A stretch of 64,000 bases of DNA. Origin: Alphaproteobacteria bacterium. Its GTDB lineage: Bacteria > Pseudomonadota > Alphaproteobacteria > UBA9219. The notes below the pieces were generated by a model. That model did no database searches, was not told the origin of the DNA, and saw nothing but the letters and a program-made list of their open reading frames with translations. The translations under genes and the position numbers were made by a program. Every line of letters begins with the position of its first letter. Position 1 is the stretch's first letter. The stretch covers positions 1,745 to 65,744 of the forward strand of contig JABDAH010000007.1 of the NCBI GenBank assembly GCA_013289265.1. Direction: 5' to 3'. This document shows, in pieces, positions 37,478 through 60,064 of this stretch.

Positions 37478-38422
37478 ATGAATATTCTTGTGACAGGCAG
37501 CGACGGTTATATCGGCAACGGCTTGGTCAGAAAGCTTCTGGCAGAAGGTCATACCGTTCACTGCGTCGATAAAAAGATTTTCTATAACCTCGAATCTGAC
37601 GGCGTTTCCGGTATTGTGCGCCCCTGCGACGACATCAAGGATATAACTGTCGAGCAACTGCGCCCGATCCAGCACATCATCCATCTGGCCGCTATCAGCA
37701 ACGATCCTGCAGCCGAGTTAGACGCGCGCCTGACATGGGAAACCAATGTTCTGTATACACTGCAGCTTATCGACCGCGCCGTCAAAGCTGGCGTTCCGCA
37801 ATTTACTTTTGCGTCATCAGGTTCGGTTTACGGTTTGAAAGACGAAGACCGCGTCACTGAAGACCTAGAACTGGTGCCATTGACGGATTACAACAAATCC
37901 AAAATGTGCGCCGAGCGCATTCTCCTGAGCTACCGCGATAAAATCGGCCTCACTATCATCCGCCCTGCCACCGTTTGCGGCATCTCAGCGCGTCAACGGC
38001 TCGATGTTGTCGTCAATATTCTGACGTCGCAGGCGCTTAAGAATAAGACCATCAAGCTGTTCGGTGGCGATCAGGTGCGTCCCCATATTCATATGAGCGA
38101 TATGCACGGCCTCTATCTCGCCATCATCAAAAACCCGAAAGCCTATCAGGGCATTTTCAATGCTGGGTTTGAGAATCTAACCAACAAGGAACTAGCCAAT
38201 CTTATCGCCAAATCAACCGGCGCTGCGATTGTGACCACAACATCGAATGACAATCGCAGCTACCGCCTCTGCAGCGACCGCTTGCTGGCCGCAGGCTTTG
38301 TGCCTCAGCACAGCGTCGACGAAGCCGTGAATGACATTACCAACGCGTTTAAGAACGGGTCTTTAAAAGATGGCCCAGAAACGCAGTCTGTACAGTGGCT
38401 GAAAAGTTATTATGGCAAGTGA
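37478..38422 (+). CDS. Extended-SDR NAD-dependent epimerase/reductase (possible GDP-4-keto-6-deoxyhexose reductase)
   Basis: ORF track, 314 aa. Sequence includes MNILVTGSDGYIGNGL...YNKSKMCAE (YxxxK). It starts 5 nt after gmd. Confidence 0.7.
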   Translation: MNILVTGSDGYIGNGLVRKLLAEGHTVHCVDKKIFYNLESDGVSGIVRPCDDIKDITVEQLRPIQHIIHLAAISNDPAAELDARLTWETNVLYTLQLIDRAVKAGVPQFTFASSGSVYGLKDEDRVTEDLELVPLTDYNKSKMCAERILLSYRDKIGLTIIRPATVCGISARQRLDVVVNILTSQALKNKTIKLFGGDQVRPHIHMSDMHGLYLAIIKNPKAYQGIFNAGFENLTNKELANLIAKSTGAAIVTTTSNDNRSYRLCSDRLLAAGFVPQHSVDEAVNDITNAFKNGSLKDGPETQSVQWLKSYYGK

Positions 38423-38460: not shown

Positions 38461-39576
38461 ATGACAAGCGCACCCATTCCGATTTCTGCAAAGAGTTCAG
38501 TTGATGAAATTGAACTTATGGTTGCGAATTATGTGGCAGAAGAACAAGAAATTTATAAAGAGACCGATCCGCGCATTGTACAGCTGGCTGGGTCCCGGCT
38601 GTTTAACAGCAATGGGTTTCCTAATGCCTGCCTGACCCAAAAAAATCTGGGTTATTATCTCGATTCACAGCAAGAAAACAGGGCCACTCTCTATATGCGC
38701 ACTATTGGTAAAATAGACGCAGAAACGGCAGAAATTCTTAAAGACGCTCTGCGTATTTTAGACAAGGCCAATACCGGAACCCAAGGCGCTGGTGGCGGCG
38801 TTAGCGGATTATTACATGGGCTTTATTGTGCCCTGAATGCGCGCAAGATTCTGCCGCAACCTGAGGCGGATCGTCCTGTGTATACGCTGGAGATTGGCCC
38901 CGGCAGCGGCTGGACGACTTACTTTCTCACCCGTTTTGGTTTTCACACCACAACTGTCGATAGCAACCCCAACCTCATTGCCACGCAACGTTATTTGATG
39001 GGCCAGTTGCCACCAGAATGCGCAGCGCATTATTCGCAACTGTCCTGGTGGAAATTTTATGACATCACCTGCGAGCCGCAACATTCCTATGACATGATGC
39101 TGGCCAATCATATGATTTGCGAAATTTCGCAATGGTCCAGGCTTTATATTGCCAAATGGGCTTCTCTCTATCTGAAGGAGAGCGGCGTCATGTTCTTCCA
39201 GGCTTGGGGCAGCGAAGATTTCTATTCCCGTTATGATGCTATCTACGCGCTTAATGCTCATAACATGGAGCTGTTCTCGCGAACTCGCGGCTCGAAAATA
39301 TTGGGGTCATTTTTCAGAAACAAAGAAGAACTTCCGGAAATTAATTTTTTCAGGAAAACACCACCGAATAGAACGGGCCCACTTCATACCTTTATGACGC
39401 GCATCAAAAGAAGGCTGCTACGACTTATGCCATGGACAGGCGCGGCATGGATCGCGAAATTAGAGGTCTATCACATGGTCACAGGCACGTCGGTTGAGCA
39501 AATTATCCGTGAGAGGGGCTATACGGATGCAGCTTTCACTAACCCGTCATTTCTTTGGGCAAAGATATGTCACTGA
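38461..39576 (+). CDS. Putative class-I SAM-dependent methyltransferase with a ~130-aa N-terminal extension
   Basis: ORF track, 371 aa. Motif-I-like YTLEIGPGSGWTTYFLTRFGFHTTTVD. The rest is unrecognised. Confidence 0.5.
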   Translation: MTSAPIPISAKSSVDEIELMVANYVAEEQEIYKETDPRIVQLAGSRLFNSNGFPNACLTQKNLGYYLDSQQENRATLYMRTIGKIDAETAEILKDALRILDKANTGTQGAGGGVSGLLHGLYCALNARKILPQPEADRPVYTLEIGPGSGWTTYFLTRFGFHTTTVDSNPNLIATQRYLMGQLPPECAAHYSQLSWWKFYDITCEPQHSYDMMLANHMICEISQWSRLYIAKWASLYLKESGVMFFQAWGSEDFYSRYDAIYALNAHNMELFSRTRGSKILGSFFRNKEELPEINFFRKTPPNRTGPLHTFMTRIKRRLLRLMPWTGAAWIAKLEVYHMVTGTSVEQIIRERGYTDAAFTNPSFLWAKICH

Positions 39577-40799
39577 TTTCTACGCCTAGCCTGTTTATTT
39601 CACATAGAAGAATGATAGTTGATATAGCGCTTCTGCTCTTCGCCCGCCTCTCTCCACGATTTTTCTCAATTGCCCTTATTATACGTTATCCGGGATATCT
39701 GCGGCATATGGGCATTAGCCGCAAAAGACTACTCAGGAAACTGCGTAAAAAAAGCTACTTCCAGTCTGGGTATCGTGATGATTTTTCTGAAACCTGGCTC
39801 ATTACCGTGCAGCCTCATATGCGCGAAAAAACCATACTCAAGACCTTTGGGCAAAGAATTACCCGCATTATAACGCTGGGGGATGAAGGTCTGTCCGCTT
39901 TTGCTAATCGCGATATTGCCCTTCAATCCATACCGCGTGATTGGATTGCTGCATGGCTGCTTATTCTTGCGAATTTTGGGCAGGAACGCCTTTTTATTCT
40001 CAGTGGCCTGTCGGATTTATGGTTTATGCCACTCAAGGTTCATATGCACAGAACCCATATGGCATTTGATGCTTATGATACCATAGCGGAATACAAAAAC
40101 GGCGCGCTGATGCCCGTTTTGAACAGACTTAACTACAGATTGGGCAGACATTATTTTATACGCGATGCGCGCTTTAAGCAGGCTTTACGCCGTAGCGGCA
40201 ATTGGAGCACGAGTGTTTGTTATGTCCCTGATGCAATGCAGATGGATGTCATTGAAGCGACCGCCCTGATACAGAAATTTCAGCCCACAGAAAAAATTAA
40301 ATTTGTTAGCGCCGGTTGGGTAACGACCGAAGGTGATGGCGGCATTCTGCGTTCATTCAAGCTTATACGCTCCATCTGGCCACAGGCTGAGCTACATTTG
40401 TGCCTGACTCAATTTATGCGTCAGGAAGACCCGTTATTTGCCCCCCTGATCGCCTATATGAGCGCGAATGAAGGGTGCCATGTACATGCGAACCTGCAGG
40501 GCGAAGCCTATCAAACAATGCTTGATGAGGCCCATGTCGGCTTGAATTTGCATGATCCCAATGTTTTCGACGAGAGTTATGCGGACTTCTCCGCTGCCAT
40601 GGTCCGCCGCAGTCCCAGCGCCCGCATTCTTGACTTCGCAGCCCGGGGCTGTGTACTAATGACGACCAAAGAACAACGCTACAGTCAGCACGTATTTAAA
40701 CTGCATTCCCCTCATAAAGCCGTGATTCACTTAACACCAAAAACGAGGCCAGAAGAATTAACGGCACTTTTTGACGGTATCCGCACGCGCGCTCAATGA
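39567..40799 (+). CDS. Hypothetical protein (about 410 aa), possible GT-B-like enzyme
   Basis: ORF track 39555..40799 (TTG), with an internal ATG at residue 5. No diagnostic motif seen. It overlaps both neighbours (ATGA at 40796). Confidence 0.5.
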   Translation: MSLISTPSLFISHRRMIVDIALLLFARLSPRFFSIALIIRYPGYLRHMGISRKRLLRKLRKKSYFQSGYRDDFSETWLITVQPHMREKTILKTFGQRITRIITLGDEGLSAFANRDIALQSIPRDWIAAWLLILANFGQERLFILSGLSDLWFMPLKVHMHRTHMAFDAYDTIAEYKNGALMPVLNRLNYRLGRHYFIRDARFKQALRRSGNWSTSVCYVPDAMQMDVIEATALIQKFQPTEKIKFVSAGWVTTEGDGGILRSFKLIRSIWPQAELHLCLTQFMRQEDPLFAPLIAYMSANEGCHVHANLQGEAYQTMLDEAHVGLNLHDPNVFDESYADFSAAMVRRSPSARILDFAARGCVLMTTKEQRYSQHVFKLHSPHKAVIHLTPKTRPEELTALFDGIRTRAQ

Positions 40800-42055: not shown

Positions 42056-42074
42056 CCCCCATGGAATATGCCCA

Positions 42075-43280: not shown

Positions 43281-43288
43281 GCCCTTAC

Positions 43289-43888
43289 ATGATTGTCGGA
43301 TTGGATCTGGACAACACGATCGTCGATTGCGACACTCTGTTTCAACATCAAGCGGAGGATTTGCTTGGATGTTCGCTCGCAGGAAAATCGCGCGAAGATG
43401 TACGCGCGCTTGTACGCAGTGAACGGGGCGATCATTTCTGGACCCAAATTCAAGCCGAAGTGTATGGCCCGCTCTATCAGGAATGCCCGCCCTGCAACGG
43501 CGCTCTTGAGACAATCGCTCAGATTGCGGCTTCACCACGCGTAACGGATATTATGATTATCAGCCACAAAACCAGGACCGACTCTGCTGGCAAGAATTAC
43601 AAGCTTCGCGACTATGCTACCGCATGGATAGAACGCCATTTGTTTGGCAAAACCTCTTTGACCAAATCCCATATTCACTTCGCAGAAACTATCGGTGAAA
43701 AACTCCAATTGGTTGCCACCAAGGAATGCGATTTTTTCCTCGACGATCTTACCGATATCATCCTGCCATTGCAGAACAGAATTCCCCACCCCGTTCTGTT
43801 TAATCGTGACGCAAAGAATCACCCGATGAAAGACAGCCTGCGCATTTGTGACTGGCCAGCCTTTGGGGCTTTTGTGCTCAATGGCTAG
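43289..43888 (+). CDS. HAD-superfamily hydrolase/phosphatase
   Basis: ORF track, 199 aa. N-terminal MIVGLDLDNTIVDC (DxDxT nucleophile motif). Confidence 0.7.
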   Translation: MIVGLDLDNTIVDCDTLFQHQAEDLLGCSLAGKSREDVRALVRSERGDHFWTQIQAEVYGPLYQECPPCNGALETIAQIAASPRVTDIMIISHKTRTDSAGKNYKLRDYATAWIERHLFGKTSLTKSHIHFAETIGEKLQLVATKECDFFLDDLTDIILPLQNRIPHPVLFNRDAKNHPMKDSLRICDWPAFGAFVLNG

Positions 43889-44834
43889 TCCCGACATCAC
43901 CCAGGATCTGACCCAAATCTTTGGACCTGGAGAATTTACTACTCAGCCGGGACGCGGCAATAGCAGTGTAGGCGTCTGGAATGGGCAGCATCGTTATTTT
44001 GTCAAAGTCTATCCGCAGGATGATAGCTGGAACCGCCGCGCTTCGGAAAAACAGGCGATTGATTACTATCGCCGCCACGGCATAACCAATGTGCCAGAGA
44101 TTCATCACAGCCATGTTGCACTGAATTACAGCGTTTTCAGCTATATCGATGGCACGCCGTACTATGATGTGACGGCGGATGCTTTTGAGCAAATTCAATT
44201 ATTTTTGAGCAAGATAATGAATTTGTCCGCCATTGACGATTTCGTCAGCGAAGCCAAGGAGGCTTTCTTCACCACGACAACCTTAAAGAGCCACATTGAT
44301 AAACGCCTAGTATTCTTGCGCACAATTGATGATCCTATGCTGCAAGAATACCTCAAAGACGGCATAGACGACTGCCTGACTGCTATTAACTATAATGACT
44401 TCCCAGACCGCGACTTTGGCAAAAAGGCCATTATCAGCCCGTCCGATTTCGGCACGCATAACAGTCTCCTGACCGGTGATAAAAGGCTTTATTTCATTGA
44501 TTTTGAGTATGCCGGCCGGGACTCTTTTTTCAAGTTAATGAGTGACATTTACTGGCATCCAGGCAGTAATCTGACGTTAAATCAACGCTCGGAGCTAATA
44601 GCGCCCTATTTAACCGATGCTGAAGATCGTTCGATTTACAGGCTTGTACGGCTGCTTATGGGCATCAAATGGTCTTTATTATTGCTAAATGAATTTATTC
44701 CTTTTAATTTGCAAAGACGCATGAAGGCATCGGGTGATGCAATGGCTGATGCGCAAAAAATTAAAACACAACAGCTTGTAAAATCAAAGAATGTTCTAAG
44801 GCAGGTAATTGATGACTGGCGCTGCGGCATCTAA
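43881..44834 (+). CDS. Choline/ethanolamine-kinase-like (APH-fold) small-molecule kinase
   Basis: ORF track 43848..44834. The internal ATG at residue 12 overlaps the HAD gene stop. Sequence includes ISPSDFGTHNSLLTGDKRLYFIDFEYAGRD (HN..l...// IDFEYa pattern). Confidence 0.65.
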   Translation: MASPDITQDLTQIFGPGEFTTQPGRGNSSVGVWNGQHRYFVKVYPQDDSWNRRASEKQAIDYYRRHGITNVPEIHHSHVALNYSVFSYIDGTPYYDVTADAFEQIQLFLSKIMNLSAIDDFVSEAKEAFFTTTTLKSHIDKRLVFLRTIDDPMLQEYLKDGIDDCLTAINYNDFPDRDFGKKAIISPSDFGTHNSLLTGDKRLYFIDFEYAGRDSFFKLMSDIYWHPGSNLTLNQRSELIAPYLTDAEDRSIYRLVRLLMGIKWSLLLLNEFIPFNLQRRMKASGDAMADAQKIKTQQLVKSKNVLRQVIDDWRCGI

Positions 44835-46383
44835 GAAAACAACAAACTTGCACTCCGTCATTGATGCAGATGCAGCTGGTCCTTCGTCCCTCCCTTCAGG
44901 CGGCGCCCGTAAACTTGTCGGGTTGCAGGGACTAAGCGATATACGCAATCGTTATCCAGATCAGAAAATTGGTCTCTGTCACGGCGCATTCGATGCCATC
45001 CATATTGGCCATATCGAACATATGGAAGAATCCAAAGCACAGTGCGACATTCTGGTAGTTAGTATTACCGGTGACCAGTTTATCACCAAACACCCGCGCG
45101 GTGTTTACCACTCGGCAGCACAACGGGCACAAATGATGGCCAGCCTGTCGGTGGTCGATTTCGTTTACATCGATAATAATCCTGAGGCCATTGAAGTTCT
45201 GCAAAACCTTAAACCGGATTTTTATTTCAAGGGCGTCGATTATGACAAGCAGCTTGAAAAGAACCCGGCCCTGAAACGCGAAGCTGATGCCTGCATGGAA
45301 AATGGCGGCCAGATCGTTTTCACGCAGTCACGCAAACATAGCTCCTCTTACCTGCTGAATAATTTTCTGGACGAGAAGCGCATTATTATTGGCGCCTATC
45401 TGAAGAAATATGGCATTAGCGCCAACGGCGACTATTTAGATGGTATCTACAATGCTTTGGCGACAGCCAATATTCTTCTGCTCGGCGAAGCCATTCTGGA
45501 CGTCTATACTTATGGTTCGCTGACAGGCGTATCCAGTAAATACACGGCCGCCTCGTTCCTGGAAACCAGCACAAAAATGATGGCTGGCGGTTTACTGGTT
45601 CTCATCCCCCTGCTGTCGGACTATGTTCAACAAGTAACGGCGCTGGTGCCCGAAGATTACGTAAAAATGGGCCTTTATAAAAAACGCTCCAATGTATCCC
45701 TGCAGGAACAGCCCTTTCCCTTGGTTGAAAAAACACGGTTCATTTCAGCCAAGAAAAAAGAGCGTTTGTTCGAAACAGTGCGCTTTCTGCATGGGAAAAA
45801 CTTTGCCCTCTCTGGCATTGTTGACGAACTTGTACGGCAGGAGGAGCGCTCAGCCGTCCTAATTTATGACTTCGGTCATGGCTTCTTTGACGGTGCCGCC
45901 CTGATGGAAGCTAATCCCAACCAGTTCTATGCCATCAATGTGCAGGCGAATTCGACAAACTATCCCTTCAATGATGTTCGAAAATATAAACATTTTGACC
46001 TGGTAGCTATCGACGAGCGCGAACTGCGACTTACGATGCGCGACAACAAGTCGAACATTGAAGATCTTATCCAGCTGTTTATTGAAACCTCGCCCATGGC
46101 AGACAAGGCTTATTTCTTCTTTACGTTGGGGGAACGTGGGGCCTGGGGCTATCACAAGGGCGAGAAGGTATTTTGCCCTGCCCTTGTTTCAAGCGTTGTT
46201 GACGCTACGGGTAGCGGCGATGTCTTCCATGCCATTGCTACGCTCTTTATTGTATCCGGCATTAATCTGGGCACAGCGCTATTTTTTGCTAGCCTCTATG
46301 CCGGCCTCTATGCCCAGATTGAAGGGCACGACGGAACCGTTACAAAGCCACAGATCATCAAGGCCATAGCCGCCATGCAATAA
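44812..46383 (+). CDS. Bifunctional protein: N-terminal cytidylyltransferase-like (HxGH) domain plus C-terminal PfkB/ribokinase-family kinase
   Basis: ORF track 44809..46383 (TTG then ATG). The N-domain reads IGLCHGAFDAIHIGHIEHMEESKAQCDILVVSITGD. The C-domain ends ..VDATGSGDVFHA (PfkB signature 2). Domain order is the reverse of E. coli HldE. Confidence 0.7.
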   Translation: MTGAAASKKTTNLHSVIDADAAGPSSLPSGGARKLVGLQGLSDIRNRYPDQKIGLCHGAFDAIHIGHIEHMEESKAQCDILVVSITGDQFITKHPRGVYHSAAQRAQMMASLSVVDFVYIDNNPEAIEVLQNLKPDFYFKGVDYDKQLEKNPALKREADACMENGGQIVFTQSRKHSSSYLLNNFLDEKRIIIGAYLKKYGISANGDYLDGIYNALATANILLLGEAILDVYTYGSLTGVSSKYTAASFLETSTKMMAGGLLVLIPLLSDYVQQVTALVPEDYVKMGLYKKRSNVSLQEQPFPLVEKTRFISAKKKERLFETVRFLHGKNFALSGIVDELVRQEERSAVLIYDFGHGFFDGAALMEANPNQFYAINVQANSTNYPFNDVRKYKHFDLVAIDERELRLTMRDNKSNIEDLIQLFIETSPMADKAYFFFTLGERGAWGYHKGEKVFCPALVSSVVDATGSGDVFHAIATLFIVSGINLGTALFFASLYAGLYAQIEGHDGTVTKPQIIKAIAAMQ

Positions 46384-46385
46384 GG

Positions 46386-47561
46386 CTAGCCGTGTATATA
46401 AAAGAAAAGTGAAATTACGCATAGAATAGCAACAGCGCCACTCATTATGCCACTGGCGACGAAGGCATTTTTTACCTGGAGAGAGCTTCGTGTAGCAATC
46501 CAGCGCCTGCACGGCTTATCGACAAAGGCAAGGGTGAGGGCGGAAACCCCCAACACAACCATTGTAACAACATATTGGTTCGACAAATGGAACTGGTAAT
46601 TCAGCGCAATGAGCAAAGGATAGTGGAGAATAAAAAGTGGATAAGAAATTTCGCCCAGATAGTTAAGTAAAACCGTCAGCCATTGGTTGAGCATTGGTAG
46701 CTTATTTGCGAAGAAAACCAATGTTGAGAATATGTAAAGTGTATAAAGCGAATATTTTCCACCTAAGGGCAGGTAATGATTCAGTAAGACACAGAGAAAA
46801 AGAGGAAAAGTAATTCCCCATACTGCCGACTGATGAAAATAAAAATAGAAACCACAGCCCCAGGCAAAGAACAATGCCAATGCGGCAGTACCGTGTGACA
46901 TATTCGCAAAGTATGGCAATCCAAGATTTTCATGAAACCAATAAAAAACGGCCGATGCGATAATGAGCAAAAGAAACAGAATATGTTTTTTAGATTGAAC
47001 AATTAAAAATAACAAAGGTGCCGTGATGTAGAAAAGCGCCTCTACGGCCAAGGACCAAGAAGTACCGATAATCTGGTCGCCAATAACCCCGTTTAACATT
47101 AAATAATTGATTAGTATTCGCCCAACCTGGGGCAAGGGACCATGCTTCGTGCCGTCGGCAGTAAAAATATCGACCGACATGTAAGCGGCGAGGAAAGCCA
47201 CATAAAATGTTAATGACACCGCAAAAACCGGATAAATCCGGCCAAGTCGTCTTGCATAAAAACCCGACATCTCGCGATTAAAAGAACTGGCAATCGAATA
47301 ACCGGAAATAATCAGAAAGACGAGGATCGCAGCAAATGGCCCCAGTTGGAACAAACGGTAGGTAAACGCTTCGTGTCGAGCCAGCAATCCATAATGCCCG
47401 GCATAGATGATATAAGCCATTATGAAGCGAATAAGCGCCAGATAAGAGAATTGGCTATTCTTATTATGATGAATGGCAGACGGCGCGGTATCGCGATGAA
47501 AGAATGTCACGCGATTAAGTTTTAAAGAAATCATAATCGCCGCTATAACCAACTTCGGCAA
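46386..47561 (-). CDS. Acyltransferase-3 family membrane O-acyltransferase
   Basis: ORF track, 391 aa, with about 10 hydrophobic segments. The start is uncertain (alternative ATG at residue 10). It overlaps the upstream methyltransferase 3' end. Confidence 0.7.
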   Translation of the reverse strand: MPKLVIAAIMISLKLNRVTFFHRDTAPSAIHHNKNSQFSYLALIRFIMAYIIYAGHYGLLARHEAFTYRLFQLGPFAAILVFLIISGYSIASSFNREMSGFYARRLGRIYPVFAVSLTFYVAFLAAYMSVDIFTADGTKHGPLPQVGRILINYLMLNGVIGDQIIGTSWSLAVEALFYITAPLLFLIVQSKKHILFLLLIIASAVFYWFHENLGLPYFANMSHGTAALALFFAWGCGFYFYFHQSAVWGITFPLFLCVLLNHYLPLGGKYSLYTLYIFSTLVFFANKLPMLNQWLTVLLNYLGEISYPLFILHYPLLIALNYQFHLSNQYVVTMVVLGVSALTLAFVDKPCRRWIATRSSLQVKNAFVASGIMSGAVAILCVISLFFYIHG

Positions 47562-48174
47562 ACAACTCTTCCCATTCCGATTCGCGCATAATGGTTTTGG
47601 CGACGAGATTCCAGCTTTCCAACTGTTCCCGTTCTTTCAAGTTTTTATAGCCGTTAACTTTGATAAAAGCTGGACCCTTTGAAACACGCATGATTTCCTT
47701 AAGGGATTGCCGCACGCCCTGTAGATCGAGATTGTGAATAGATGAAATCGCAATCACCAGATCGAAGTTTTTGTCCGGGTAAGGTAGCTTATCGCAACTG
47801 GCCTTCTGCAAATAGGGCGCAACATCCGACATGGCTTTTGATAAAGCGTAATCGGAGATATCGATACCGGCCACTTCCAGCGAGGGCATGGCCAGTTTGA
47901 AGTCATGCAACATAAAACCTTTACCGCAACCGACATCCAGGATCTTGGCGCCCGGCTTCAAGTCGTAATAATAAATAAAATCCCTGACGACCTCGGTAAA
48001 AAATTTGGGATTGTAATGATAACCGCCATACCCAAAGCGCCGCTCGGTATCGAAATAGATTTCATCGAACCGCTGCGCTTTTTCACGATCTTCCTGCGTT
48101 ACTTTGACGCGTTCCGATGTAATTTCTTTGCGCGCAGTCTTCGGGTATTTCCGCATCAGGAAAGTGTTTATCAT
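47515..48174 (-). CDS. Class-I SAM-dependent methyltransferase
   Basis: ORF track, 219 aa. Motif I reads KILDVGCGKGFMLHDF. There is a 4-nt overlap with glf. Confidence 0.8.
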   Translation of the reverse strand: MINTFLMRKYPKTARKEITSERVKVTQEDREKAQRFDEIYFDTERRFGYGGYHYNPKFFTEVVRDFIYYYDLKPGAKILDVGCGKGFMLHDFKLAMPSLEVAGIDISDYALSKAMSDVAPYLQKASCDKLPYPDKNFDLVIAISSIHNLDLQGVRQSLKEIMRVSKGPAFIKVNGYKNLKEREQLESWNLVAKTIMRESEWEELFAEVGYSGDYDFFKT

Positions 48175-49286
48175 TTTAGCTCCTCATAAATGCCAAGCGC
48201 CTGCTCGACACAATCATCGATATCCACCTGATAGTCGTATTTGCCGGCGCGACCGATGGAATACACATTCTTGCCAAGCCGCTTCGCATATTCGTCGTGA
48301 ATGGCACGGAACTTCTTGATCGGCAACGGATAATGCTTGCCGTTGGTGGAAGGCACTTCGAGCCCCAACAATGTACTGGGCGATTTATAGCCCGAGAGTT
48401 TCTTATATTCGACAATGCGGGTATAGGGTTCGGCGTTGGCATAATAGACGAAGAATACATCCTCAGGAAAAGCATGTTCTGTCGGCAAGATAATCGTCGT
48501 CAGATCACGACCCACGAAAGGCAGTTCGCCCAGATCTTCCTTCAGCACCATATCGAGCGCGATGGTATTGACGATTTTGTCATATTTCTTCGGCAAGCCT
48601 TTAACGACGATTTCGCACGTATCGGGACGGATTTCATCGATGGGACAACGCAGATGAAAGGTCGCGAAATCCTGTACCTTGTCAAAGAAATCATTATACC
48701 CGTTGAGCGCGATCGGGTAGGCCGATATGGCCTCGCTCCAGGCGTGCGAGGAGTCTTTCTTGATCGGGGTGCCCTTTGGTGACCAGTTAAAGGTATCGAT
48801 CTGCTTGTTATTCTCAAGCCGCCACATTTTTTTGGAATAGGTGTCGATGAATTTTGAATAGAGAATGGTTCCGACCTTGGAGATCCAGTATTCCTCGAAA
48901 TTCTTCGGCTCCGTAATCTCGACACCCTCAATCGCGTCCAGCTGCTCTTGAATTTCCTTGCCGCGTTTCATGCGTGGAATGTCGCTGGCACTGATCGGGT
49001 AATTGAAAAAGTCAGCTTCTTCTTCCAGATATGTCACGAAGCGATGTTCCAACTTTCGCATCGGCACAATGGAATGCAGATAGTCAAACACTTCCTGCTT
49101 CTTGGTCAGAAAATGGCGGGGCCCGAAAGTATAAGGATGGCCGCCACGGAAATGCGTACGCACGCCAGCGCCTATGGTATTGCCGCCCTCAAAAATTTCT
49201 ATTTCCCAGCCGCCGAGGCGCTGAAATTGATAAGCTGCGGCGCAACCTGCCGTGCCCGCACCGATAATCGCTACTTTTTTCGCCAT
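48171..49286 (-). CDS. glf: UDP-galactopyranose-mutase-like FAD-dependent pyranose/furanose mutase
   Basis: ORF track, 371 aa. Sequence includes KVAIIGAGTAGCAAAYQF (GxGxxG), ..GGHPYTFGPRHFLT..FFNYPI.. consistent with the Glf family. Confidence 0.7.
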   Translation of the reverse strand: MAKKVAIIGAGTAGCAAAYQFQRLGGWEIEIFEGGNTIGAGVRTHFRGGHPYTFGPRHFLTKKQEVFDYLHSIVPMRKLEHRFVTYLEEEADFFNYPISASDIPRMKRGKEIQEQLDAIEGVEITEPKNFEEYWISKVGTILYSKFIDTYSKKMWRLENNKQIDTFNWSPKGTPIKKDSSHAWSEAISAYPIALNGYNDFFDKVQDFATFHLRCPIDEIRPDTCEIVVKGLPKKYDKIVNTIALDMVLKEDLGELPFVGRDLTTIILPTEHAFPEDVFFVYYANAEPYTRIVEYKKLSGYKSPSTLLGLEVPSTNGKHYPLPIKKFRAIHDEYAKRLGKNVYSIGRAGKYDYQVDIDDCVEQALGIYEELK

Positions 49287-49315
49287 CTAACTCAACGCCT
49301 TTTTCAACTGTGGGT

Positions 49316-49768
49316 TTATAGAAATTTTCTTAATTCTTGGCGGCGTTCATCATTCCGCTTGATCATATCGGCGACCTGAAGCACTTTTGCCATCTCTTTC
49401 AATTCATCGTTAGTACGCGCTATTTTCTTTTCCAGCACAAAATGAAAGGTTAGTTTCTTTTGTTGCTGGATATCGAGAATATTTTTCATTTTGCCCGCAT
49501 CCTTGGGCATCATGTGGAAAGAATACATGACGATATTTCCACCAGGCTCAATCGATGTCAGCGTACTGAACAGCTGCATATAACAGCGGGAGAAAATATG
49601 CTCACATTGCGGCATATTATAGCTGAAGTTCATGAGGTTGGCATATTCACGCAGACAGGAATTCTGGGCAGGCACGGGCATTATAAAAGGCCCAAACTGC
49701 TGCGGCGTAACATAGCCCGTAATAGCCAGGGGCTCAGAAGAGGATGTTTTCATTATAAGCCAAGCCAA
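49316..49768 (-). CDS. Hypothetical protein (about 145-150 aa) inside the sugar operon
   Basis: ORF track only. It overlaps the 3' end of the upstream dioxygenase gene. No motif recognised. Confidence 0.5.
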   Translation of the reverse strand: MAWLIMKTSSSEPLAITGYVTPQQFGPFIMPVPAQNSCLREYANLMNFSYNMPQCEHIFSRCYMQLFSTLTSIEPGGNIVMYSFHMMPKDAGKMKNILDIQQQKKLTFHFVLEKKIARTNDELKEMAKVLQVADMIKRNDERRQELRKFL

Positions 49769-50510
49769 TTTTTGTTACTGGCGACATAAACAAAGGTTCA
49801 TAAAAAGTGCCAGTCGTACGTTCATGGGGCACCGCCGCATATTCAGGACTAAAAAGCGATTTGAAACGGCAGTTCAGGGATATGCGGGTTTTATCCGTCT
49901 TATTCAACTGATTGCCATGAAAGAGGGTTGAGCTGAATAAAATACAGTCACCCATCTTGGCATTGGCGATTACCGCATCCTTTTTATTGTCTTCGAACAA
50001 TTCGTTCATGCCTCGATGCTGGTAACTGGGCAAGGCGTCGTAAATTTTCTGACTTTCAGGAGGATGAAAAATATACATGGCGTTGCTGTCAAACGCATCC
50101 GTTACGGCCGTCCATAAGACACATTCAAACTGGCTTTGCCCGCTCATCGTATCGGAATGCATCATAAGGACGGAGCCAGCGTCGTTGGGCATCTGAATGC
50201 TGAGGCATAGTTTGATCTGTATTGAAATATCAGGACCAAACATGGCGCTTAGCTGATCCGCCGCCAGGGAATAATAATCCTTCTTCCAGTTCGGCAGCGC
50301 ATTCAAGGCGTTAAAAATTTTGACGCGCAAAGGGTTGATCTGTTCAACTGTTACATATTTATGGAGAAGATTAAGATCTTCGATGGGATAGCCAACAAAT
50401 TCTTCGGCGACGTCTTTAAAAACCTTCCGGAAACGCGCAAAAGTTTCGGGCTGTGCATTGGGAAAAACGGCGTAGCGATTGCGTTCAAAAGTATCCAGAA
50501 AAACACTCAT
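49734..50510 (-). CDS. PhyH-like Fe(II)/2-oxoglutarate dioxygenase
   Basis: ORF track, 258 aa. Sequence includes LMMHSDTMSG (HxD) ...LFHGNQLNKTDKTRISLNCRF (distal His and Arg). Confidence 0.65.
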   Translation of the reverse strand: MSVFLDTFERNRYAVFPNAQPETFARFRKVFKDVAEEFVGYPIEDLNLLHKYVTVEQINPLRVKIFNALNALPNWKKDYYSLAADQLSAMFGPDISIQIKLCLSIQMPNDAGSVLMMHSDTMSGQSQFECVLWTAVTDAFDSNAMYIFHPPESQKIYDALPSYQHRGMNELFEDNKKDAVIANAKMGDCILFSSTLFHGNQLNKTDKTRISLNCRFKSLFSPEYAAVPHERTTGTFYEPLFMSPVTKIGLAYNENILF

Positions 50511-51418
50511 GCTGCCTGTCCTTTTTCACGGGCTTCTAGAAGAAAGTCTTTAACGACCTTCAACGCATTGTAGGGCGGAAATGACAATGGCTTATAGATG
50601 CTTGTAAGGGTTTGAGCCGGAGCGGTCGCAGGAACTTCGTCCCATAAATCATAGTCAGCCGCTTTTAAAATAGCGCGTAAATTACTGCTTTCGGAAGCAA
50701 ATATATTTGTCGTTAGGCACGCAGTCGAGCCCTTTCCGGTGAAGCCCTTAAAGGCCTCAAATAAAGCCCAACCGGGGCACACGGCATTGAAGGCAGCATC
50801 AGGATTAGCGATTTTGAGGCGAGCTTTTTGTTCTATCGCCAGTTTCCATTTGGATATGAAATTATATTTCACACCGTCGACAAGAAGAACCGGGACCCTT
50901 AGGCCCAACATATTAATTTTTGTCTGGCTATGAAGGGTTGCCATCTCGTGCTCAAACACCAGCTTGGATAAGCCGTAGGGATCGAGATGGGTTTTCTCGC
51001 TCATTTCGTTCAGAACGCTACCTTTGGTGCGATTGTAAACGGCGCTGGAAGATAGATAGAAAATATCTTTCAAATTGCCCGAACCGGCCATGTGCTGGAA
51101 AAGCGCCATCACACCATATACGTTACCGGCATAATAATTATCGAGGGAGCCACTCATATTATTACCCGGCGTAACAGAGGCCAGATGGATAACTGTATCG
51201 ATCGTTTTTAAAGCTGGCAAAGCGAGCATTTCCGCAGACAAATTAGAAAAATCAATTTGCAACGGCTTCAAGCGCGGGAGATTGAAAGCTGGTGCGTTTT
51301 TATTGTAGGCCGCATAAAGAGTCGCGTTCGGAAAATCCTGCGTCAAGCATTTGCAGAAGAATGCGCCGATAGGGCTGCTCGCGCCAGTAATGAGGATATT
51401 TTCAGCTGCCATAACCAC
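50507..51418 (-). CDS. NAD(P)-dependent epimerase/dehydratase-family protein
   Basis: ORF track, 303 aa. Sequence includes ILITGASSPIGAFF...YGLSKLVFE (YxxxK). There is a 4-nt overlap with the downstream gene. Confidence 0.7.
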   Translation of the reverse strand: MVMAAENILITGASSPIGAFFCKCLTQDFPNATLYAAYNKNAPAFNLPRLKPLQIDFSNLSAEMLALPALKTIDTVIHLASVTPGNNMSGSLDNYYAGNVYGVMALFQHMAGSGNLKDIFYLSSSAVYNRTKGSVLNEMSEKTHLDPYGLSKLVFEHEMATLHSQTKINMLGLRVPVLLVDGVKYNFISKWKLAIEQKARLKIANPDAAFNAVCPGWALFEAFKGFTGKGSTACLTTNIFASESSNLRAILKAADYDLWDEVPATAPAQTLTSIYKPLSFPPYNALKVVKDFLLEAREKGQAA

Positions 51419-51420
51419 TC

Positions 51421-51987
51421 CTACTTTATGTGTTCTTCCATCATCCGCATGGCGGCGTGGGCGATCATCAACTGCAGATCTTCGGCAACCTGCATATCGT
51501 CCAGTTCCGCATGCAGCAAAATATCAACCATTGCCTTGGCCTTGCCGCCATTAAAGCCCAGCATGCCAAGTGTCTTTGCGCTGCGGGCTTTGGCCACTTC
51601 CAGCGCCTTGATGATATTGGGTGAATTACCGCTACCACTCAGAACAACCAGCAGATCATTCGGCTTTAGTTTATTTTCCAGCTGGTGCGAGAAAATCTTG
51701 TCATAGCCGATATCGTTGGCGAGACATGTCAGGACAGAGCTGTTGGCGGGCAAAGCTTCCACATTGAACCGGCGGCCTGCATCGCAATAACCATAGGTAA
51801 AGTCGTTAGCCATATGGATGGCATTAGCCGCACTGCCGCCATTGCCGCAAATATAAATCACGCCACCTTTGCTTTTGGCTTCCAGCATCGCCTCTTTCAG
51901 CATACCGCCCCAAAGCGTAAGGGACTTGCGAATATCGACCGCCTCCCACGCCTGAAGGTATTTTTCCATATCCGTTAGTGTCGTCAT
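51421..51987 (-). CDS. gmhA: SIS-domain phosphoheptose isomerase, copy 2
   Basis: ORF track, 188 aa. Sequence includes IYICGNGGSAANAIHMANDF...LLVVLSGSGNSPNII. Confidence 0.8.
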   Translation of the reverse strand: MTTLTDMEKYLQAWEAVDIRKSLTLWGGMLKEAMLEAKSKGGVIYICGNGGSAANAIHMANDFTYGYCDAGRRFNVEALPANSSVLTCLANDIGYDKIFSHQLENKLKPNDLLVVLSGSGNSPNIIKALEVAKARSAKTLGMLGFNGGKAKAMVDILLHAELDDMQVAEDLQLMIAHAAMRMMEEHIK

Positions 51988-52904
51988 TGGATCATCTCTT
52001 TAATTGTTTGCTCAATCGATTGGCGGTCTAACCCGTTTACCTTCAAAGCGGATGGCCGCAACACTGTGGTATTAAATTCCGCTTCCGTCACGCATTTGAT
52101 TTCAACTATGGGCAGTTTCTGCTTTTTCTGTATAGCAGCCGCTAGAATTGAATTTGCCAGCGATCCTACAAGACGATTTTCTTCCAAAAACAGTACCTTA
52201 TCCAGCATGGGGGACACATCTTCTGAAAGATAAGCATGCCAGTCAATAACAGAACGTACGGCAACCGATGCCTGCCCCTGCAGCGCTTTCCTAGCTTCCA
52301 GCGCTTCTTCGGTAATAGCGCCGTGAGTGATGATTTCTACATCTGTTCCCGGCCAATATTTATAACTTCCGTGATGCGTGAAATCGGGAAAATCCGCAAA
52401 AAGCTTACGCTCGCCGCCTTTCTGCAAACGCAAATAGCAGGGTGCTGGTACGACCTCATCAGCAAAAAATTTATCGGTCAGATCGGCGACATCCTGCGCA
52501 TCACAAGGTGTATAAATACGCATATTGGGCAAAACATGCAGTAAGGCCAGGTCTTCAATTCCGTAATGCGTGAAGCCCAGAGAGTCATAAGCAAAACCTG
52601 CACCGACACTGCAGACGATGAGAGGCGATTTGGAATAGGCAACATCGACGCGCAGCTGGTCATGCACGCGTGAAGTAATAAAAGGGTTGATGGTATAAAC
52701 CATGCTCGTAGCATTGAGCGCAGATGAAAAGGCCGCAGCGTACGAAACCATATGCTGTTCGCTAATGCCAAAATTATGGAATTGGTTTGGCCTTTCCACA
52801 CGCAGAGCATCGAACACACCAAAACCGATATCGCCGCAAAACAAATGATGTTTGGGGTTTTTCGCAAAACATTTTGCGAGAGTGACACCGAGTGCTTTTC
52901 TCAC
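51984..52904 (-). CDS. Transketolase, C-terminal (pyrimidine-binding) subunit
   Basis: ORF track, 306 aa. Sequence includes FHNFGISEQHMVSYAAAF... There are 4-nt overlaps on both sides. Confidence 0.8.
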   Translation of the reverse strand: MRKALGVTLAKCFAKNPKHHLFCGDIGFGVFDALRVERPNQFHNFGISEQHMVSYAAAFSSALNATSMVYTINPFITSRVHDQLRVDVAYSKSPLIVCSVGAGFAYDSLGFTHYGIEDLALLHVLPNMRIYTPCDAQDVADLTDKFFADEVVPAPCYLRLQKGGERKLFADFPDFTHHGSYKYWPGTDVEIITHGAITEEALEARKALQGQASVAVRSVIDWHAYLSEDVSPMLDKVLFLEENRLVGSLANSILAAAIQKKQKLPIVEIKCVTEAEFNTTVLRPSALKVNGLDRQSIEQTIKEMIQ

Positions 52905-53734
52905 GCTACCCCTGCCTTTAACTCTGCTTCCATGCGCTGCAAATCCTGTTCAGACGCGCGCTTGGCGTGCCACTCAGTAACACCTTCGGTAAAGCTGATG
53001 CCCTTGCCCTTCAGGGTATTGGCATTGATGAAAAAGGCCTGATTTACAGCCTCCATTTTATCAATAATCTGCCGCAACGCCTCAACATTATGCCCGTCGA
53101 CTGAAGCGCATTGAATGCTGAAATCCTTGATCTTGGCCTCGATCGGCTCAATCGGGCGGATATCCTGCGTGGCGCCAAGTGATAGAAATTTGTTGTTGTC
53201 GAGAATGATCGTTAGCGGGAATTTGTCATCGTGGCTGAGGTGCAGCAAGGCTTCCCAGTTGGAGCCTTCATGCATTTCGCCGTCGCCGAGAATGCAGGTC
53301 ACGCGACCTGACTTGCCAGCAAAGCGCAAGGCACCCGCAAGCCCCATGCTAATGGAAAGCCCGTGCCCCAGAGAGCCCGTTGACCAGCCGATGCCAAGCG
53401 ATGGATCACGCTTGATGTGGCCCATAAAGGCGCCGCCGTCCTTGCAGTAAGTCGCCAGTTTTTCATCCGGGACAATGCCGATGGCATTGAGCAAAGCATA
53501 AACTGCAAGCCCGCAATGGCCCTTACTGAGAACCAAAGTGTTGCGATCGATAAAGTCTTTGAATGAGAGTTTTTTGGCGATGACCGGCGCATAATAGGCC
53601 ACCAATATTTCGGTGACCGAGAAGGAGCCGCCGAAATGCACACTGCCAACGCTACGCGCGGTTTTGATAATATTCAGGCGAGTTTGACGGGCAATTGAGT
53701 CGTACATTTGGAATCGAAATAAGGTCAGTGCCAT
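52901..53734 (-). CDS. Transketolase, N-terminal (TPP-binding) subunit
   Basis: ORF track, 277 aa. Sequence includes HFGGSFSVTEIL..LSKGHCGLAVYA..GSLGHGLSISMGLA..ILGDGEMHEGSNWEA. Confidence 0.85.
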   Translation of the reverse strand: MALTLFRFQMYDSIARQTRLNIIKTARSVGSVHFGGSFSVTEILVAYYAPVIAKKLSFKDFIDRNTLVLSKGHCGLAVYALLNAIGIVPDEKLATYCKDGGAFMGHIKRDPSLGIGWSTGSLGHGLSISMGLAGALRFAGKSGRVTCILGDGEMHEGSNWEALLHLSHDDKFPLTIILDNNKFLSLGATQDIRPIEPIEAKIKDFSIQCASVDGHNVEALRQIIDKMEAVNQAFFINANTLKGKGISFTEGVTEWHAKRASEQDLQRMEAELKAGVA

Positions 53735-53845
53735 AAGGCGAAAGCGTTATAACATGCATGAAAAGGGGCGCAAATCTTATTTAAAACAGCTGCAAATGCG
53801 TAAAACATATTGTGGGAAGCAGGTTAAGTGGTTATAGCATCTGCC

Positions 53846-60061: not shown

Positions 60062-60064
60062 GCC

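Follow-up and report, generated by a model that had tools for sequence, protein, structure and literature searches.

A conserved cassette of about twelve genes, probably for one unusual nucleotide-activated sugar, in an alphaproteobacterium of lineage UBA9219

Nine chained minus-strand genes in a 64,000-nucleotide stretch of an Alphaproteobacteria bacterium (lineage UBA9219, contig JABDAH010000007.1; hereafter the window) probably make up the larger part of a cassette of about 12 genes that is conserved, horizontally mobile and found again in many uncultured bacteria. Taken jointly with the route proposed below, we consider that this cassette probably makes one unusual nucleotide-activated sugar for a surface polysaccharide, O-antigen or capsule, exported by an ABC transporter. 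All nine open reading frames were verified on the minus strand of the window, where they span 46386-53734, and Pfam and NCBIfam upheld every family guess that a first-pass annotation had made for them:

52901..53734, minus strand: TK-N, N-terminal (PP) subunit of a transketolase-like ThDP enzyme, 277 aa (PF00456, 62 bits)
51984..52904, minus strand: TK-C, C-terminal (Pyr) subunit of the same enzyme, 306 aa (PF02779, 74 bits)
51421..51987, minus strand: GmhA-like SIS-domain sugar-phosphate isomerase, 188 aa (TIGR00441, 122 bits against a cut-off of 209)
50507..51418, minus strand: SDR303, a divergent extended SDR (PF01370, 60 bits; TGxxxxxG and YxxxK in the sequence)
49734..50510, minus strand: Fe(II)/2-oxoglutarate oxygenase of PhyH type, 258 aa (TIGR04324, "sporadic carbohydrate cluster"; PF05721, 33 bits)
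49316..49753, minus strand: LIC12192-family protein, 145 aa from an ATG start (TIGR04323, 117 bits)
48171..49286, minus strand: Glf-family flavoenzyme, putative NDP-sugar pyranose/furanose mutase, 371 aa (PF03275, 92 bits)
47515..48174, minus strand: MT219, class I SAM methyltransferase (PF13649 and PF08241, about 56 bits)
46386..47561, minus strand: AT3-family membrane acyltransferase (PF01757, 60 bits; start codon uncertain)

These genes had been described as one overlapping operon, and the junctions read from the sequence bear this out, with overlaps of 4 nt or longer and gaps of at most 29 nt throughout the 7.35 kb:

52901-52904, minus strand: TK-N/TK-C, 4-nt overlap (GTGA)
51984-51987, minus strand: TK-C/SIS, 4-nt overlap (ATGA)
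minus strand: SIS/SDR303, 2-nt spacer
50507-50510, minus strand: SDR303/oxygenase, 4-nt overlap (ATGA)
49734-49753, minus strand: oxygenase/LIC12192, 20-nt overlap from the ATG at 49753, 35 nt from a TTG
minus strand: LIC12192/Glf, 29-nt spacer
48171-48174, minus strand: Glf/MT219, 4-nt overlap (ATGA)
minus strand: MT219/AT3, overlap of at most 47 nt, or about 20 nt from an in-frame ATG near 47534

For LIC12192 the ATG is the more likely start, because it agrees with where homologues begin and with the 145-aa product in the protein collection. Neither promoter-like matches (8 against 16.0 ± 4.5 expected) nor terminator-like matches (10 against 12.7 ± 3.2 expected) were enriched in the operon, counts which are compatible with a single transcript without proving one. 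Short gene overlaps are commonplace in bacterial operons. The adjacency of the oxygenase and LIC12192 genes, abutting or overlapping, was seen again in every related locus examined, and this repetition, unlike short overlaps as such, exceeds chance.

The view of these genes as one functional unit was supported by their co-occurrence across loci just 25-50% identical. We compared 12 loci having both the oxygenase and the LIC12192 gene, namely the window and 11 others which are 25-88% identical to it. A ThDP enzyme was present in 11 of the 12, and within 10 kb of the SDR303/oxygenase/LIC12192 module likewise in 11; MT219 was present in 11 (orthologues 30-87% identical, adjoining the mutase in the window and in 7 of the 8 other loci having both), the reversed HldE in 10, TK-N and the Glf-like mutase in 9 each and the GmhA-like isomerase in 8. 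The supposed self-sufficiency of the operon did not hold, as the activation genes of the same cassette, those for the reversed HldE, the HAD phosphatase, the APH-family kinase and SDR314, lie on the opposite strand at 37478-46383. These and the other flanking genes are:

37478..38422, plus strand: SDR314, extended SDR and conserved cassette member (best NCBIfam match heptose_epim, 83 bits, under its cut-off)
38461..39576, plus strand: methyltransferase-like protein, 371 aa (PF13489, 40 bits)
39555..40799, plus strand: 414-aa protein, candidate glycosyltransferase
43289..43888, plus strand: HAD-superfamily phosphatase (GmhB analogue), 199 aa (HAD motifs)
43848..44834, plus strand: APH-family kinase, 328 aa (PF01636, 35 bits)
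44809..46383, plus strand: domain-reversed HldE, N-terminal nucleotidyltransferase and C-terminal PfkB kinase, 524 aa (PF01467 and PF00294)
53828-54595, plus strand: Wzt, ABC exporter component (PF00005; NF050108 Wzt/RfbE, 160 bits)
54596-55399, minus strand: Wzm, ABC exporter component (PF01061 ABC-2)

Dot/Icm-type genes are also found in the window, a point in common with Coxiella burnetii. The 414-aa protein had no family match in the Pfam and NCBIfam profile searches; it has a 55% identical orthologue in L004/L005, genes for 413-422 aa hold its position in OrKeB_9R and L004, and it is possibly the glycosyltransferase of the cassette. The gene for the 371-aa methyltransferase-like protein lies immediately downstream of LIC12192 in the close relatives L002 and OrKeB_9R. 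No homologue of the AT3 acyltransferase was found in any related locus compared, so that its place as a pathway member could not be maintained and it appears to be a strain-specific accessory decoration gene outside the conserved cassette.

L004/L005 carries the cassette without oxygenase, LIC12192 and SDR303, and L001 carries these three and a reversed-HldE-like gene without TK or Glf. The two halves can therefore function separately, and SDR303, oxygenase and LIC12192 make up a separable sub-module. The same distribution speaks for a mosaic, an operon merely shared by two or more independent pathways, in which TK, SIS, reversed HldE, HAD, APH, SDR314, Glf and MT would make one sugar, while SDR303, oxygenase, LIC12192 and the 371-aa protein would make or modify another residue or substituent of one and the same polysaccharide. 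In keeping with this, the sub-module in the window is the block between SIS and Glf, which adjoin in L004, and the 371-aa gene stands between SDR314 and the 414-aa gene, which also adjoin there. We nevertheless regard such a mosaic as rather unlikely, since, of the 12 loci with the sub-module, 11 have a ThDP enzyme no more than 10 kb away and 10 have the reversed HldE, among lineages just 25-40% identical, a co-occurrence for which it is difficult to account unless the genes are functionally linked.

Within the single cassette which we favour, the four activation functions of the ADP-/GDP-heptose pathway (GmhA, HldE or HddA/HddC, GmhB) all appear, by family membership, to be represented: SIS isomerase, PfkB kinase, nucleotidyltransferase and HAD phosphatase. 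Unlike in that pathway, the nucleotidyltransferase domain (TIGR02199, rfaE domain II, residues 48-180, 79 bits) precedes the kinase domain (TIGR02198, rfaE domain I, residues 216-507, 43 bits), and the ThDP enzyme, the 2OG oxygenase, LIC12192 and the APH kinase have no place in it. The GmhA label stood as to family, the isomerase matching PDB GmhA entries at E of about 1e-25 and retaining two His and the SGSGNS phosphate loop, but it missed the equivalog cut-off, and in 5 of 5 orthologues Asp replaces the catalytic Glu and Glu replaces Gln175. The HAD phosphatase had no Pfam or NCBIfam match; its motifs I-IV (G-x-D-x-D-N-T, S-H-x-T, K, F-x-D-D-L) are invariant across 9 orthologues, as are SPSDFGxHN and DFEYxG across 9 orthologues of the APH kinase, whose gene adjoins the HAD gene in all loci having both. 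Similarly, the Glf label held for the family but not for the equivalog (TIGR00031, 90 bits against a cut-off of 303); the protein aligns end to end with the UGM 3hdq and retains the YxKFxxxYxxKxW, YTR, YP(L/V)P and GRxxxYxY motifs. With the GmhA-, HldE- and Glf-like proteins all scoring well under equivalog cut-offs, the sugar may be something other than a heptose.

The closest PDB match of SDR314 was 6vo6 (E 9e-24), which we take to be the GDP-heptose C4-dehydrogenase Cj1427, and orthologues with 37-88% identity were found in L004/L005, L006, L010, L013, L018, L021 and L023. In the capsule of Campylobacter jejuni, heptose extensions comprise the C4-dehydrogenase Cj1427, epimerases, reductases and, as the first-pass annotation had correctly noted, GDP-6-deoxy-heptose pyranose/furanose mutases (PMC10680097); the cassette likewise combines SDR tailoring with a Glf-family mutase in a surface-polysaccharide locus. 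The O-antigen region of Coxiella burnetii encodes a phosphoheptose isomerase (CBU0674), an SDR (CBU0676) and a reversed HldE (CBU0678), the last essential for phase I LPS (PMC5843353, PMC5423948, PMC13252051) and, going by its published description, of the same architecture as 44809..46383 (PMC5843353). SDR314 is 38% identical to CBU_0676 and the window Gmd 50% identical to CBU_0689, the window C-methyltransferase just 28% identical to CBU_0691, and both regions adjoin GDP-mannose, C-methyltransferase and Wzm/Wzt genes. We found no evidence in Coxiella for a transketolase-like enzyme, Glf mutase, oxygenase or LIC12192.

Three lost substrate-binding residues, and other ThDP types standing in its place in two loci, suggest that the transketolase-like enzyme may not be a source of sedoheptulose-7-P but may instead move a C2 unit onto the sugar. 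Among solved structures TK-N comes closest to the split transketolase 6yak, matching its N-chain (E 1e-40), and it retains the GDG...N ThDP motif and the equivalents of His26/66/100; TK-C matches 6yaj (E 1e-25) and retains the cofactor Glu (GISEQ), R358 and a basic residue at R520. The canonical substrate-binding residues H461, S385 and D469 are missing from TK-C in 8 of 8 orthologues, where H461 and S385 are Gly and the GEDG motif reads Y-D-x-L-G. D469 sets the acceptor stereochemistry in genuine transketolases. At the cluster place of the transketolase, L023 has a PDH-E1 alpha/beta pair and R8o89anm an ALS-like enzyme. Enzymes of these types put C2 branches on NDP-keto sugars in a ThDP-dependent manner, namely YerE (ALS-like) in yersiniose and AviB1/AviB2 and related PDH-E1-like pairs in antibiotic sugars, and like those systems the cassette has a ThDP enzyme inside an NDP-sugar tailoring cluster. 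We know of no sugar-branching enzyme of transketolase type; the cassette enzyme, being of that type, would deliver a glycolaldehyde (hydroxyacetyl) unit, not an acetyl or hydroxyethyl one.

The earlier proposal that the transketolase makes sedoheptulose-7-P for GmhA is possible and was supported by no result, given the lost residues, the PDH-E1 and ALS-like replacements and the presence of SIS and reversed HldE without any transketolase or other ThDP enzyme in L006 and, by the literature, in Coxiella. A supply role may be put more broadly: from pentose-phosphate intermediates the split enzyme would make the ketose phosphate of the isomerase, be it sedoheptulose-7-P or an unusual heptulose/octulose, or a free ketose which the APH kinase then phosphorylates. 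It would thus be analogous to LmbR/LmbN in the lincosamide octose pathway, where the LmbR transaldolase, the GmhA-like isomerase LmbN, the kinase LmbP, the phosphatase LmbK and the nucleotidyltransferase LmbO act. That pathway resembles the cassette in leading from a C-C bond-forming enzyme through these same functions to an NDP higher-carbon sugar, and differs in using C3 transfer, in serving an antibiotic instead of a polysaccharide and in having neither the oxygenase-LIC12192 pair nor a mutase. In the window 4-nt overlaps link TK-N to TK-C and TK-C to SIS, an order kept in L004 and OrKeB_9R, the transketolase His residues which bind the ketose donor, R358 and the basic residue at position 520 are retained, and loss of H461 and S385 could suit a non-phosphorylated or longer acceptor; moreover, the APH kinase gene is directly upstream of TK-N in L010, L013, L016 and L018, and an FGGY (ketose-type) kinase adjoins the ALS-like enzyme in R8o89anm. 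Against this, besides L006 and Coxiella, the PDH-E1 pair of L023 would yield a 1-deoxy-ketose unusable by an aldose-ketose isomerase, and yet L023 retains SIS and reversed HldE; D469 is lost in 8 of 8 orthologues, and L013 and L016 have Asn at the position which aligns with the 'DGH' His of solved transketolases. We therefore hold a supply role to be a tentative alternative to C2 transfer.

The membership of the remaining pair in the TIGRFAMs 'sporadic carbohydrate cluster', which the first-pass annotation had put forward, was confirmed by NCBIfam profile search, the oxygenase matching TIGR04324 at 262 bits (cut-off 150) and 49316-49753 matching TIGR04323/LIC12192 at 117 bits (cut-off 55), both far over the cut-offs, and the two genes being neighbours within a carbohydrate cluster. 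H118, D120, H198, R209 and R215 of the oxygenase, and with them its facial triad, are invariant across 17 homologues with identities down to 29%. The AlphaFold model of LIC12192 (pLDDT 92) predicts a resolvase-like alpha/beta fold: in a Foldseek search of the PDB the top 19 matches were all catalytic domains of serine recombinases (TM 0.5-0.66, 12-17% identity). These matches might suggest a degenerate recombinase left by a mobile element and unrelated to sugar chemistry, an origin which we judge extremely improbable, since the DNA-binding domain is missing, the resolvase G-Y-x-R-x-S motif is lost, 22 columns are invariant among 16 homologues and the 458 matching sequence clusters are nearly all of about 140 aa. 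Further, LIC12192 adjoins the oxygenase in each locus examined and the two are fused into a single protein in P0159 and P0210, residues 54-263 of P0159 being oxygenase (E 7e-29) and residues 298-419 LIC12192 (E 1e-17). An SDR303-like gene adjoins the pair in L001, L003, L010, L013, L016, L018, L019 and L024. The TIGR04323 and TIGR04324 definitions carry no function, and the 12-gene context, the fusion and the resolvase-like fold are absent from the model names; our literature search found no paper on the cassette or on these three features.

Combined together, these observations allow a route to be proposed, each step being read from family membership and conserved co-occurrence and their order being guesswork. 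The GmhA-like isomerase would convert a ketose phosphate, for which sedoheptulose-7-P of central metabolism would be the simplest candidate, to an aldose phosphate, which would be phosphorylated at C1 by the PfkB domain of the reversed HldE, relieved of its distal phosphate by the HAD phosphatase and converted to an NDP-sugar by the nucleotidyltransferase domain. SDR314 would then oxidise or epimerise the NDP-sugar, and the transketolase-like enzyme would move a two-carbon ketol unit onto this intermediate, for branching or chain extension; alternatively, ketol transfer would come earlier and build the ketose, a supply role which the TK-C/SIS overlap of 4 nt in the window and L004 fits equally well. 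The Fe/2OG oxygenase, in complex with the resolvase-fold LIC12192, would carry out oxidative tailoring with SDR303, after which the Glf-like mutase would contract the ring to a furanose and MT219 would O-methylate the sugar; the APH kinase stands outside these nine steps. The sugar thus made is most likely of heptose type, as suggested by SDR314, whose closest structure is 6vo6 and whose best NCBIfam family is a heptose epimerase.

Nine genes on the minus strand between 46386 and 53734 are, in our estimation rather probably, the larger half of a conserved and mobile cassette of about 12 genes for one unusual NDP-activated sugar, made by a heptose-type route. We computed the family assignments, the co-occurrence of genes and their fusions, and we infer which substrate is used, in what order the steps run and what the product is. 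The first-pass annotation had placed nine ORFs here and named their families from the sequence alone; all nine are present exactly at the coordinates it assigned, and Pfam and NCBIfam matches confirmed every family guess. They encode the two subunits of a split transketolase-like enzyme (TK-N and TK-C), a GmhA-like SIS protein, an SDR (SDR303), an oxygenase, a small protein of the LIC12192 family, a Glf-type mutase, a methyltransferase (MT219) and an acyltransferase (AT3), joined as follows.

Junctions between successive genes of the nine-gene run
52901-52904, minus strand, TK-N and TK-C, 4-nt overlap, read from the sequence
51984-51987, minus strand, TK-C and SIS, 4-nt overlap, read from the sequence
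minus strand, SIS and SDR303, 2-nt spacer
50507-50510, minus strand, SDR303 and oxygenase, 4-nt overlap
minus strand, oxygenase and LIC12192, 20-35-nt overlap depending on the LIC12192 start
minus strand, LIC12192 and Glf, 29-nt spacer
48171-48174, minus strand, Glf and MT219, 4-nt overlap
minus strand, MT219 and AT3, overlap of up to 47 nt, the AT3 start being uncertain

The LIC12192 start is most likely the ATG at 49753 rather than the TTG at 49768, since the product on record has 145 aa and the homologues begin at the same Met. Motif scans found no enrichment of promoter-like or terminator-like matches along the run, and taken alone the overlapping genes are ordinary operon architecture. 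At the distal end, AT3 (ending at 46386) converges with the gene of a 524-aa protein (ending at 46383); the two stop codons are 2 nt apart (46381-46388), so that these two long, convergent operons have no space for terminators between them.

The case for a cassette comes from related loci, which we gathered via homologues of LIC12192, of the oxygenase and of the 524-aa protein (a putative HldE with reversed domains), by a metagenome scan and from contig neighbourhoods, and onto which the window proteins were mapped by tblastn. The homologue sets consist almost only of metagenome proteins, and a scan of genome contigs with the LIC12192 alignment confirmed one locus only, L001. The oxygenase-LIC12192 pair with usable flanks was found in 12 loci (the window, OrKeB_9R, L003, L010, L013, L016, L018, L021, L023, L024, R8o89anm and L001), with identities to the window of between about 25% and 88%. 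A ThDP enzyme accompanies the pair in 11 of the 12 (transketolase-type in nine), an MT219-type methyltransferase likewise in 11, the reversed HldE in 10, a Glf-type mutase in nine and the GmhA-like SIS protein in eight; the genes for a HAD protein and an APH kinase, as a pair, and for a second SDR (SDR314), all three encoded on the plus strand of the window, are also frequent. Because gene order is shuffled between lineages, the association is to be ascribed to function rather than to common descent from one operon. The set is modular: L004 and L005 (55-88% identical to the window) carry the transketolase, SIS, Glf, methyltransferase, SDR314, 414-aa, HAD, APH and reversed HldE genes and lack SDR303, oxygenase and LIC12192, while L001, from an alphaproteobacterial single-cell genome, has an SDR, the oxygenase, LIC12192, a reversed-HldE-like gene and a nucleotidyltransferase and lacks transketolase and Glf. 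Carriers of the cassette belong to freshwater, marine and host-associated lineages.

The remaining partners lie in the convergent plus-strand operon, which encodes SDR314 (37478-38422), a 371-aa methyltransferase-like protein, a 414-aa protein, two glycosyltransferases, a 199-aa protein (43289-43888), the APH kinase and the 524-aa protein (44809-46383); no curated NCBIfam model matched the 371-aa and 414-aa proteins. In the 524-aa protein HldE domain II (adenylyltransferase) occupies residues 48-180 and domain I (PfkB kinase) residues 216-507, and the full-length HldE model NF008454 scores it at 68 bits, short of the equivalog cut-off of 521; judged by its domains, it is an HldE with the domain order reversed. 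HAD motifs I-IV (DxDNT, SHxT, K, DD) of the 199-aa protein are invariant in nine orthologues, and it had no match to GmhB or any other HAD profile (Pfam at E <= 1e-3, NCBIfam at E <= 1e-4). The GmhA-like SIS protein reaches 121.8 bits against TIGR00441 and misses the equivalog cut-off of 209. It keeps the His (H180/H183), but Asp takes the place of the catalytic Glu (E65 in E. coli, E68 in B. pseudomallei) and Glu that of Gln175, both in the window protein and in its four orthologues (5/5); with these exchanges it may differ from GmhA in substrate or stereochemical outcome. Going by these assignments, SIS protein, PfkB kinase, HAD phosphatase and nucleotidyltransferase would match the ADP-heptose route exactly, one for each of its four functions. 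The nearest solved relative of SDR314 is 6vo6, which we take to be Cj1427, a GDP-heptose C4-dehydrogenase, and its best NCBIfam match, which stays below cut-off, is to the family of ADP-heptose epimerases.

The oxygenase and its small neighbour had been tentatively linked to a TIGRFAMs description of a 'sporadic carbohydrate cluster', and the HMM check proved this link right: the oxygenase belongs to TIGR04324 (262.4 bits, E 4e-78, model positions 3-247 of 248, curated cut-off 150) and the 145-150-aa protein to TIGR04323/LIC12192 (116.9 bits, E 5e-34, curated cut-off 55). The window pair thus lies above both curated cut-offs and, as in that description, its genes are neighbours within a carbohydrate cluster. 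The HxD...H iron triad and the 2OG Arg of the oxygenase (H118, D120, H198, R209, R215) are invariant among 17 homologues. The LIC12192 family is rare: a search of 1.84 billion representatives gave 458 clusters at E <= 1e-3, of which 178 remained at E <= 1e-10. Its gene lies directly downstream of the oxygenase gene with a 20-nt overlap, an adjacency seen in all related loci, and in two proteins, P0159 and P0210, oxygenase and LIC12192 are naturally fused, with the domains in the order of the genes. These fusions are strong evidence that the two proteins act together. A third protein, P0094, joins a LIC12192 domain to a C-terminal domain of ~340 aa, which had no Pfam match and carries an H-L-T-K-T-A-G-G-T motif reminiscent of sulfotransferases; from this fusion, LIC12192 may pair with enzymes besides the oxygenase.

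AlphaFold models LIC12192 with confidence (pLDDT 92), and the top 19 Foldseek matches in the PDB are all catalytic domains of resolvases/integrases (serine recombinases), with TM 0.5-0.66 at 12-17% identity and with the long C-terminal helix included in the match. However, LIC12192 reads G-Y-V-T-P-R where resolvases have G-Y-x-R-x-S with the catalytic Ser, its chain stops at residue 145, where the long helix is complete, and has no helix-turn-helix domain, and no Pfam resolvase match was obtained. The idea that LIC12192 is a recombinase was rejected, since it has neither the catalytic motif nor a DNA-binding domain. The homologue alignment instead brings out an invariant polar cluster of the family's own (P-V-P-x-Q-N, R-E-Y, E51, S78, H104-x-x-x-E108), and we read LIC12192 as an enzyme subunit or as a substrate-binding or dimerisation partner of the oxygenase.

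The closest solved relative of the transketolase-like pair is the split transketolase of Carboxydothermus (6yak, E 1e-40, and 6yaj, E 1e-25). Aligned to 6yak, TK-N keeps the ThDP/Mg motif GDGE...NN and the equivalents of His26, His66 and His100; aligned to 6yaj, TK-C keeps the cofactor-activating Glu (GISEQ). Phosphonopyruvate decarboxylase and DXS were rejected as identities, their scores being far weaker than that of transketolase and the transketolase His residues being kept. The first-pass annotation had proposed a self-sufficient route to a modified higher-carbon sugar in which this enzyme provides sedoheptulose-7-P, and TK-C and the SIS protein are indeed translationally coupled. Moreover, several loci have the gene of the APH kinase directly upstream of TK-N, and an FGGY kinase accompanies the ThDP enzyme of R8o89anm, as would also suit a variant in which the enzyme builds an unusual ketose that the APH kinase then phosphorylates. 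Against a supply role, the activation core exists without transketolase, for L006 carries SIS, SDR314-like and reversed-HldE genes without ThDP enzyme, mutase or oxygenase. The sugar-phosphate/acceptor-binding residues of transketolase, which we take to be R358, S385, H461, D469 and R520 (E. coli numbering), are only partly retained in TK-C: R358 is present and a basic residue (Lys or Arg) stands at position 520, while in all eight cassette orthologues H461 and S385 are each replaced by Gly and D469 is lost (Y-D-x-L-G for GEDG). Furthermore, in two distant loci another ThDP enzyme is present instead of the pair, namely a PDH-E1 alpha/beta pair immediately upstream of oxygenase-LIC12192 in L023 (7943-9965) and an ALS-like enzyme beside the FGGY kinase in R8o89anm (genes at 607-2412). 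ALS-like and PDH-E1-like enzymes such as YerE and pairs of the AviB1/B2 type are known to add two-carbon branches to NDP-keto sugars. Taken together, the lost TK-C residues, the PDH-E1 and ALS-like replacements and the transketolase-free activation core make a tailoring role, C2 transfer onto the sugar, somewhat likelier than sedoheptulose-7-P supply; we give tailoring about an even chance and keep supply as a tentative second choice.

The Glf-like protein scores 90.3 bits against TIGR00031 (UDP-galactopyranose mutase; equivalog cut-off 303.75 missed) and 91.8 bits against PF03275 (cut-off 26.3); thus, going by profile scores, both the GmhA-like and the Glf-like proteins are family members and not equivalogs. 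It has GAGTAG near the N-terminus (the FAD-binding GxGxxG), and YTR, GRxxxYxY and YP(L/V)P align with 3hdq. The AT3 acyltransferase is absent from every related locus.

All nine genes are part of a locus for a polysaccharide, about 30 kb long (33.4-62.9 kb), which also encodes a Wzm/Wzt ABC exporter and several glycosyltransferases; GC is 0.45-0.49 across 34001-56000 and 0.52-0.54 in the flanks, the usual pattern for horizontally exchanged O-antigen loci. Other features of the window are listed here.

Further features of the window
33373-34122, plus strand, HddC-like nucleotidyltransferase, 126 bits, below equivalog cut-off
34144-36249, plus strand, second acyltransferase, AT3 plus SGNH fused type, 701 aa
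36403-37473 and 57939-62882, GDP-mannose to 6-deoxy-4-keto to C-methyl branch: ManC, Gmd, TylC3-type C-methyltransferase, Fcl-like reductase and one more SDR
56761-57828, minus strand, HddA-like GHMP kinase, 140 bits, below equivalog cut-off, at the opposite end of the locus from the HddC-like gene
61125-62882, minus strand, 585-aa ManC ORF, TIGR01479 match only from residue 107
13728-21622, minus strand, Dot/Icm-type type IVB secretion genes: IcmJ/DotN, TraQ-like, short DotG/IcmE-like, DotH/IcmK and two IcmL/DotI paralogues

With two acyltransferases the polymer may bear two different O-acyl decorations, and the HddA-like and HddC-like proteins may make up a second route of sugar-1-phosphate activation, of GDP type, that shares the isomerase and phosphatase. 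The listed TTG start of ManC is probably ~100 codons too far upstream. DotH/IcmK matches PF12293 at 237 bits and most Dot/Icm-type genes fall below NCBIfam cut-offs; these genes suggest a host-associated, Legionellales-like organism. No tRNA or Rfam family was found in the window.

In the pathway that we propose, the heptose-type route would yield an NDP-activated sugar. A ThDP enzyme would transfer a C2 unit, the oxygenase-LIC12192 complex would carry out an oxidative step with SDR303, the Glf-type mutase, whose catalytic motifs are intact, would contract the ring, and the sugar would be O-methylated; once finished, it would enter a polysaccharide exported by Wzm/Wzt.

The activation core has a counterpart in Coxiella burnetii, where CBU0678 has the same reversed-HldE architecture and is essential for phase I LPS, its function being described as unknown (PMC5843353; PMC13252051). 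Its loss causes the transition from virulent to avirulent LPS phase (PMC5843353; PMC13252051), its neighbours include CBU0674 (phosphoheptose isomerase) and CBU0676 (SDR), and its acquisition from Alphaproteobacteria has been proposed (PMC5423948). For comparison, the sequences of CBU_0676, CBU_0688, CBU_0689 and CBU_0691 were rebuilt from a paper's supplement. SDR314 is 38% identical to CBU_0676 over 316 residues, Gmd 50% to CBU_0689, the Fcl-like reductase 29% to CBU_0688 and the C-methyltransferase 28% to CBU_0691, and the GDP-mannose/C-methyl branch resembles the proposed virenose route of Coxiella. The likeness of the reversed HldE to CBU0678 is one of domain architecture only, taken from the published description; the match between the two activation modules consists of that architecture and the 38% identity of one neighbouring SDR. 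A split transketolase in the Coxiella O-antigen region was considered and dropped, being unmentioned in the Coxiella literature consulted.

The families of the parts are known already, and so are nucleotide-sugar pathways encoded in O-antigen or capsule loci, the overall kind to which the system belongs. Searches by name for 'sporadic carbohydrate cluster', LIC12192, TIGR04323 and TIGR04324 found no literature, and nothing relevant was found pairing transketolase with O-antigen, capsule, heptose isomerase, mutase or dioxygenase. As no paper was found, four things appear undescribed: the conserved gene combination, a transketolase-like enzyme of non-canonical type, the fusion or coupling of an oxygenase to a resolvase-fold protein, and the extended CBU0678-type module. 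The most far-reaching interpretation, which we consider unlikely, is that the product is a sugar type new to glycans: a furanose derived from a heptose, given a C2 branch or a longer chain by the first transketolase-type enzyme known in nucleotide-sugar tailoring and then acted on by a new two-component oxygenase (Fe/2OG plus resolvase-fold partner), with the CBU0674/0676/0678 module as activation core.

Sugars of surface polysaccharides set serotype, phage susceptibility and immune recognition, and the cassette includes a protein family of no known function with an unexpected fold. If it makes a new sugar, three points of its enzymology would be new: the use of a transketolase-type step to tailor or construct a sugar, an oxygenase that has an obligate small partner, and a divergent GmhA. 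If the core of SIS, SDR314 and reversed HldE is the CBU0674/0676/0678 module, the long-unexplained need for CBU0678 in virulent phase I LPS would become directly testable, and tractable homologues from the cassette could settle what CBU0678 activates.
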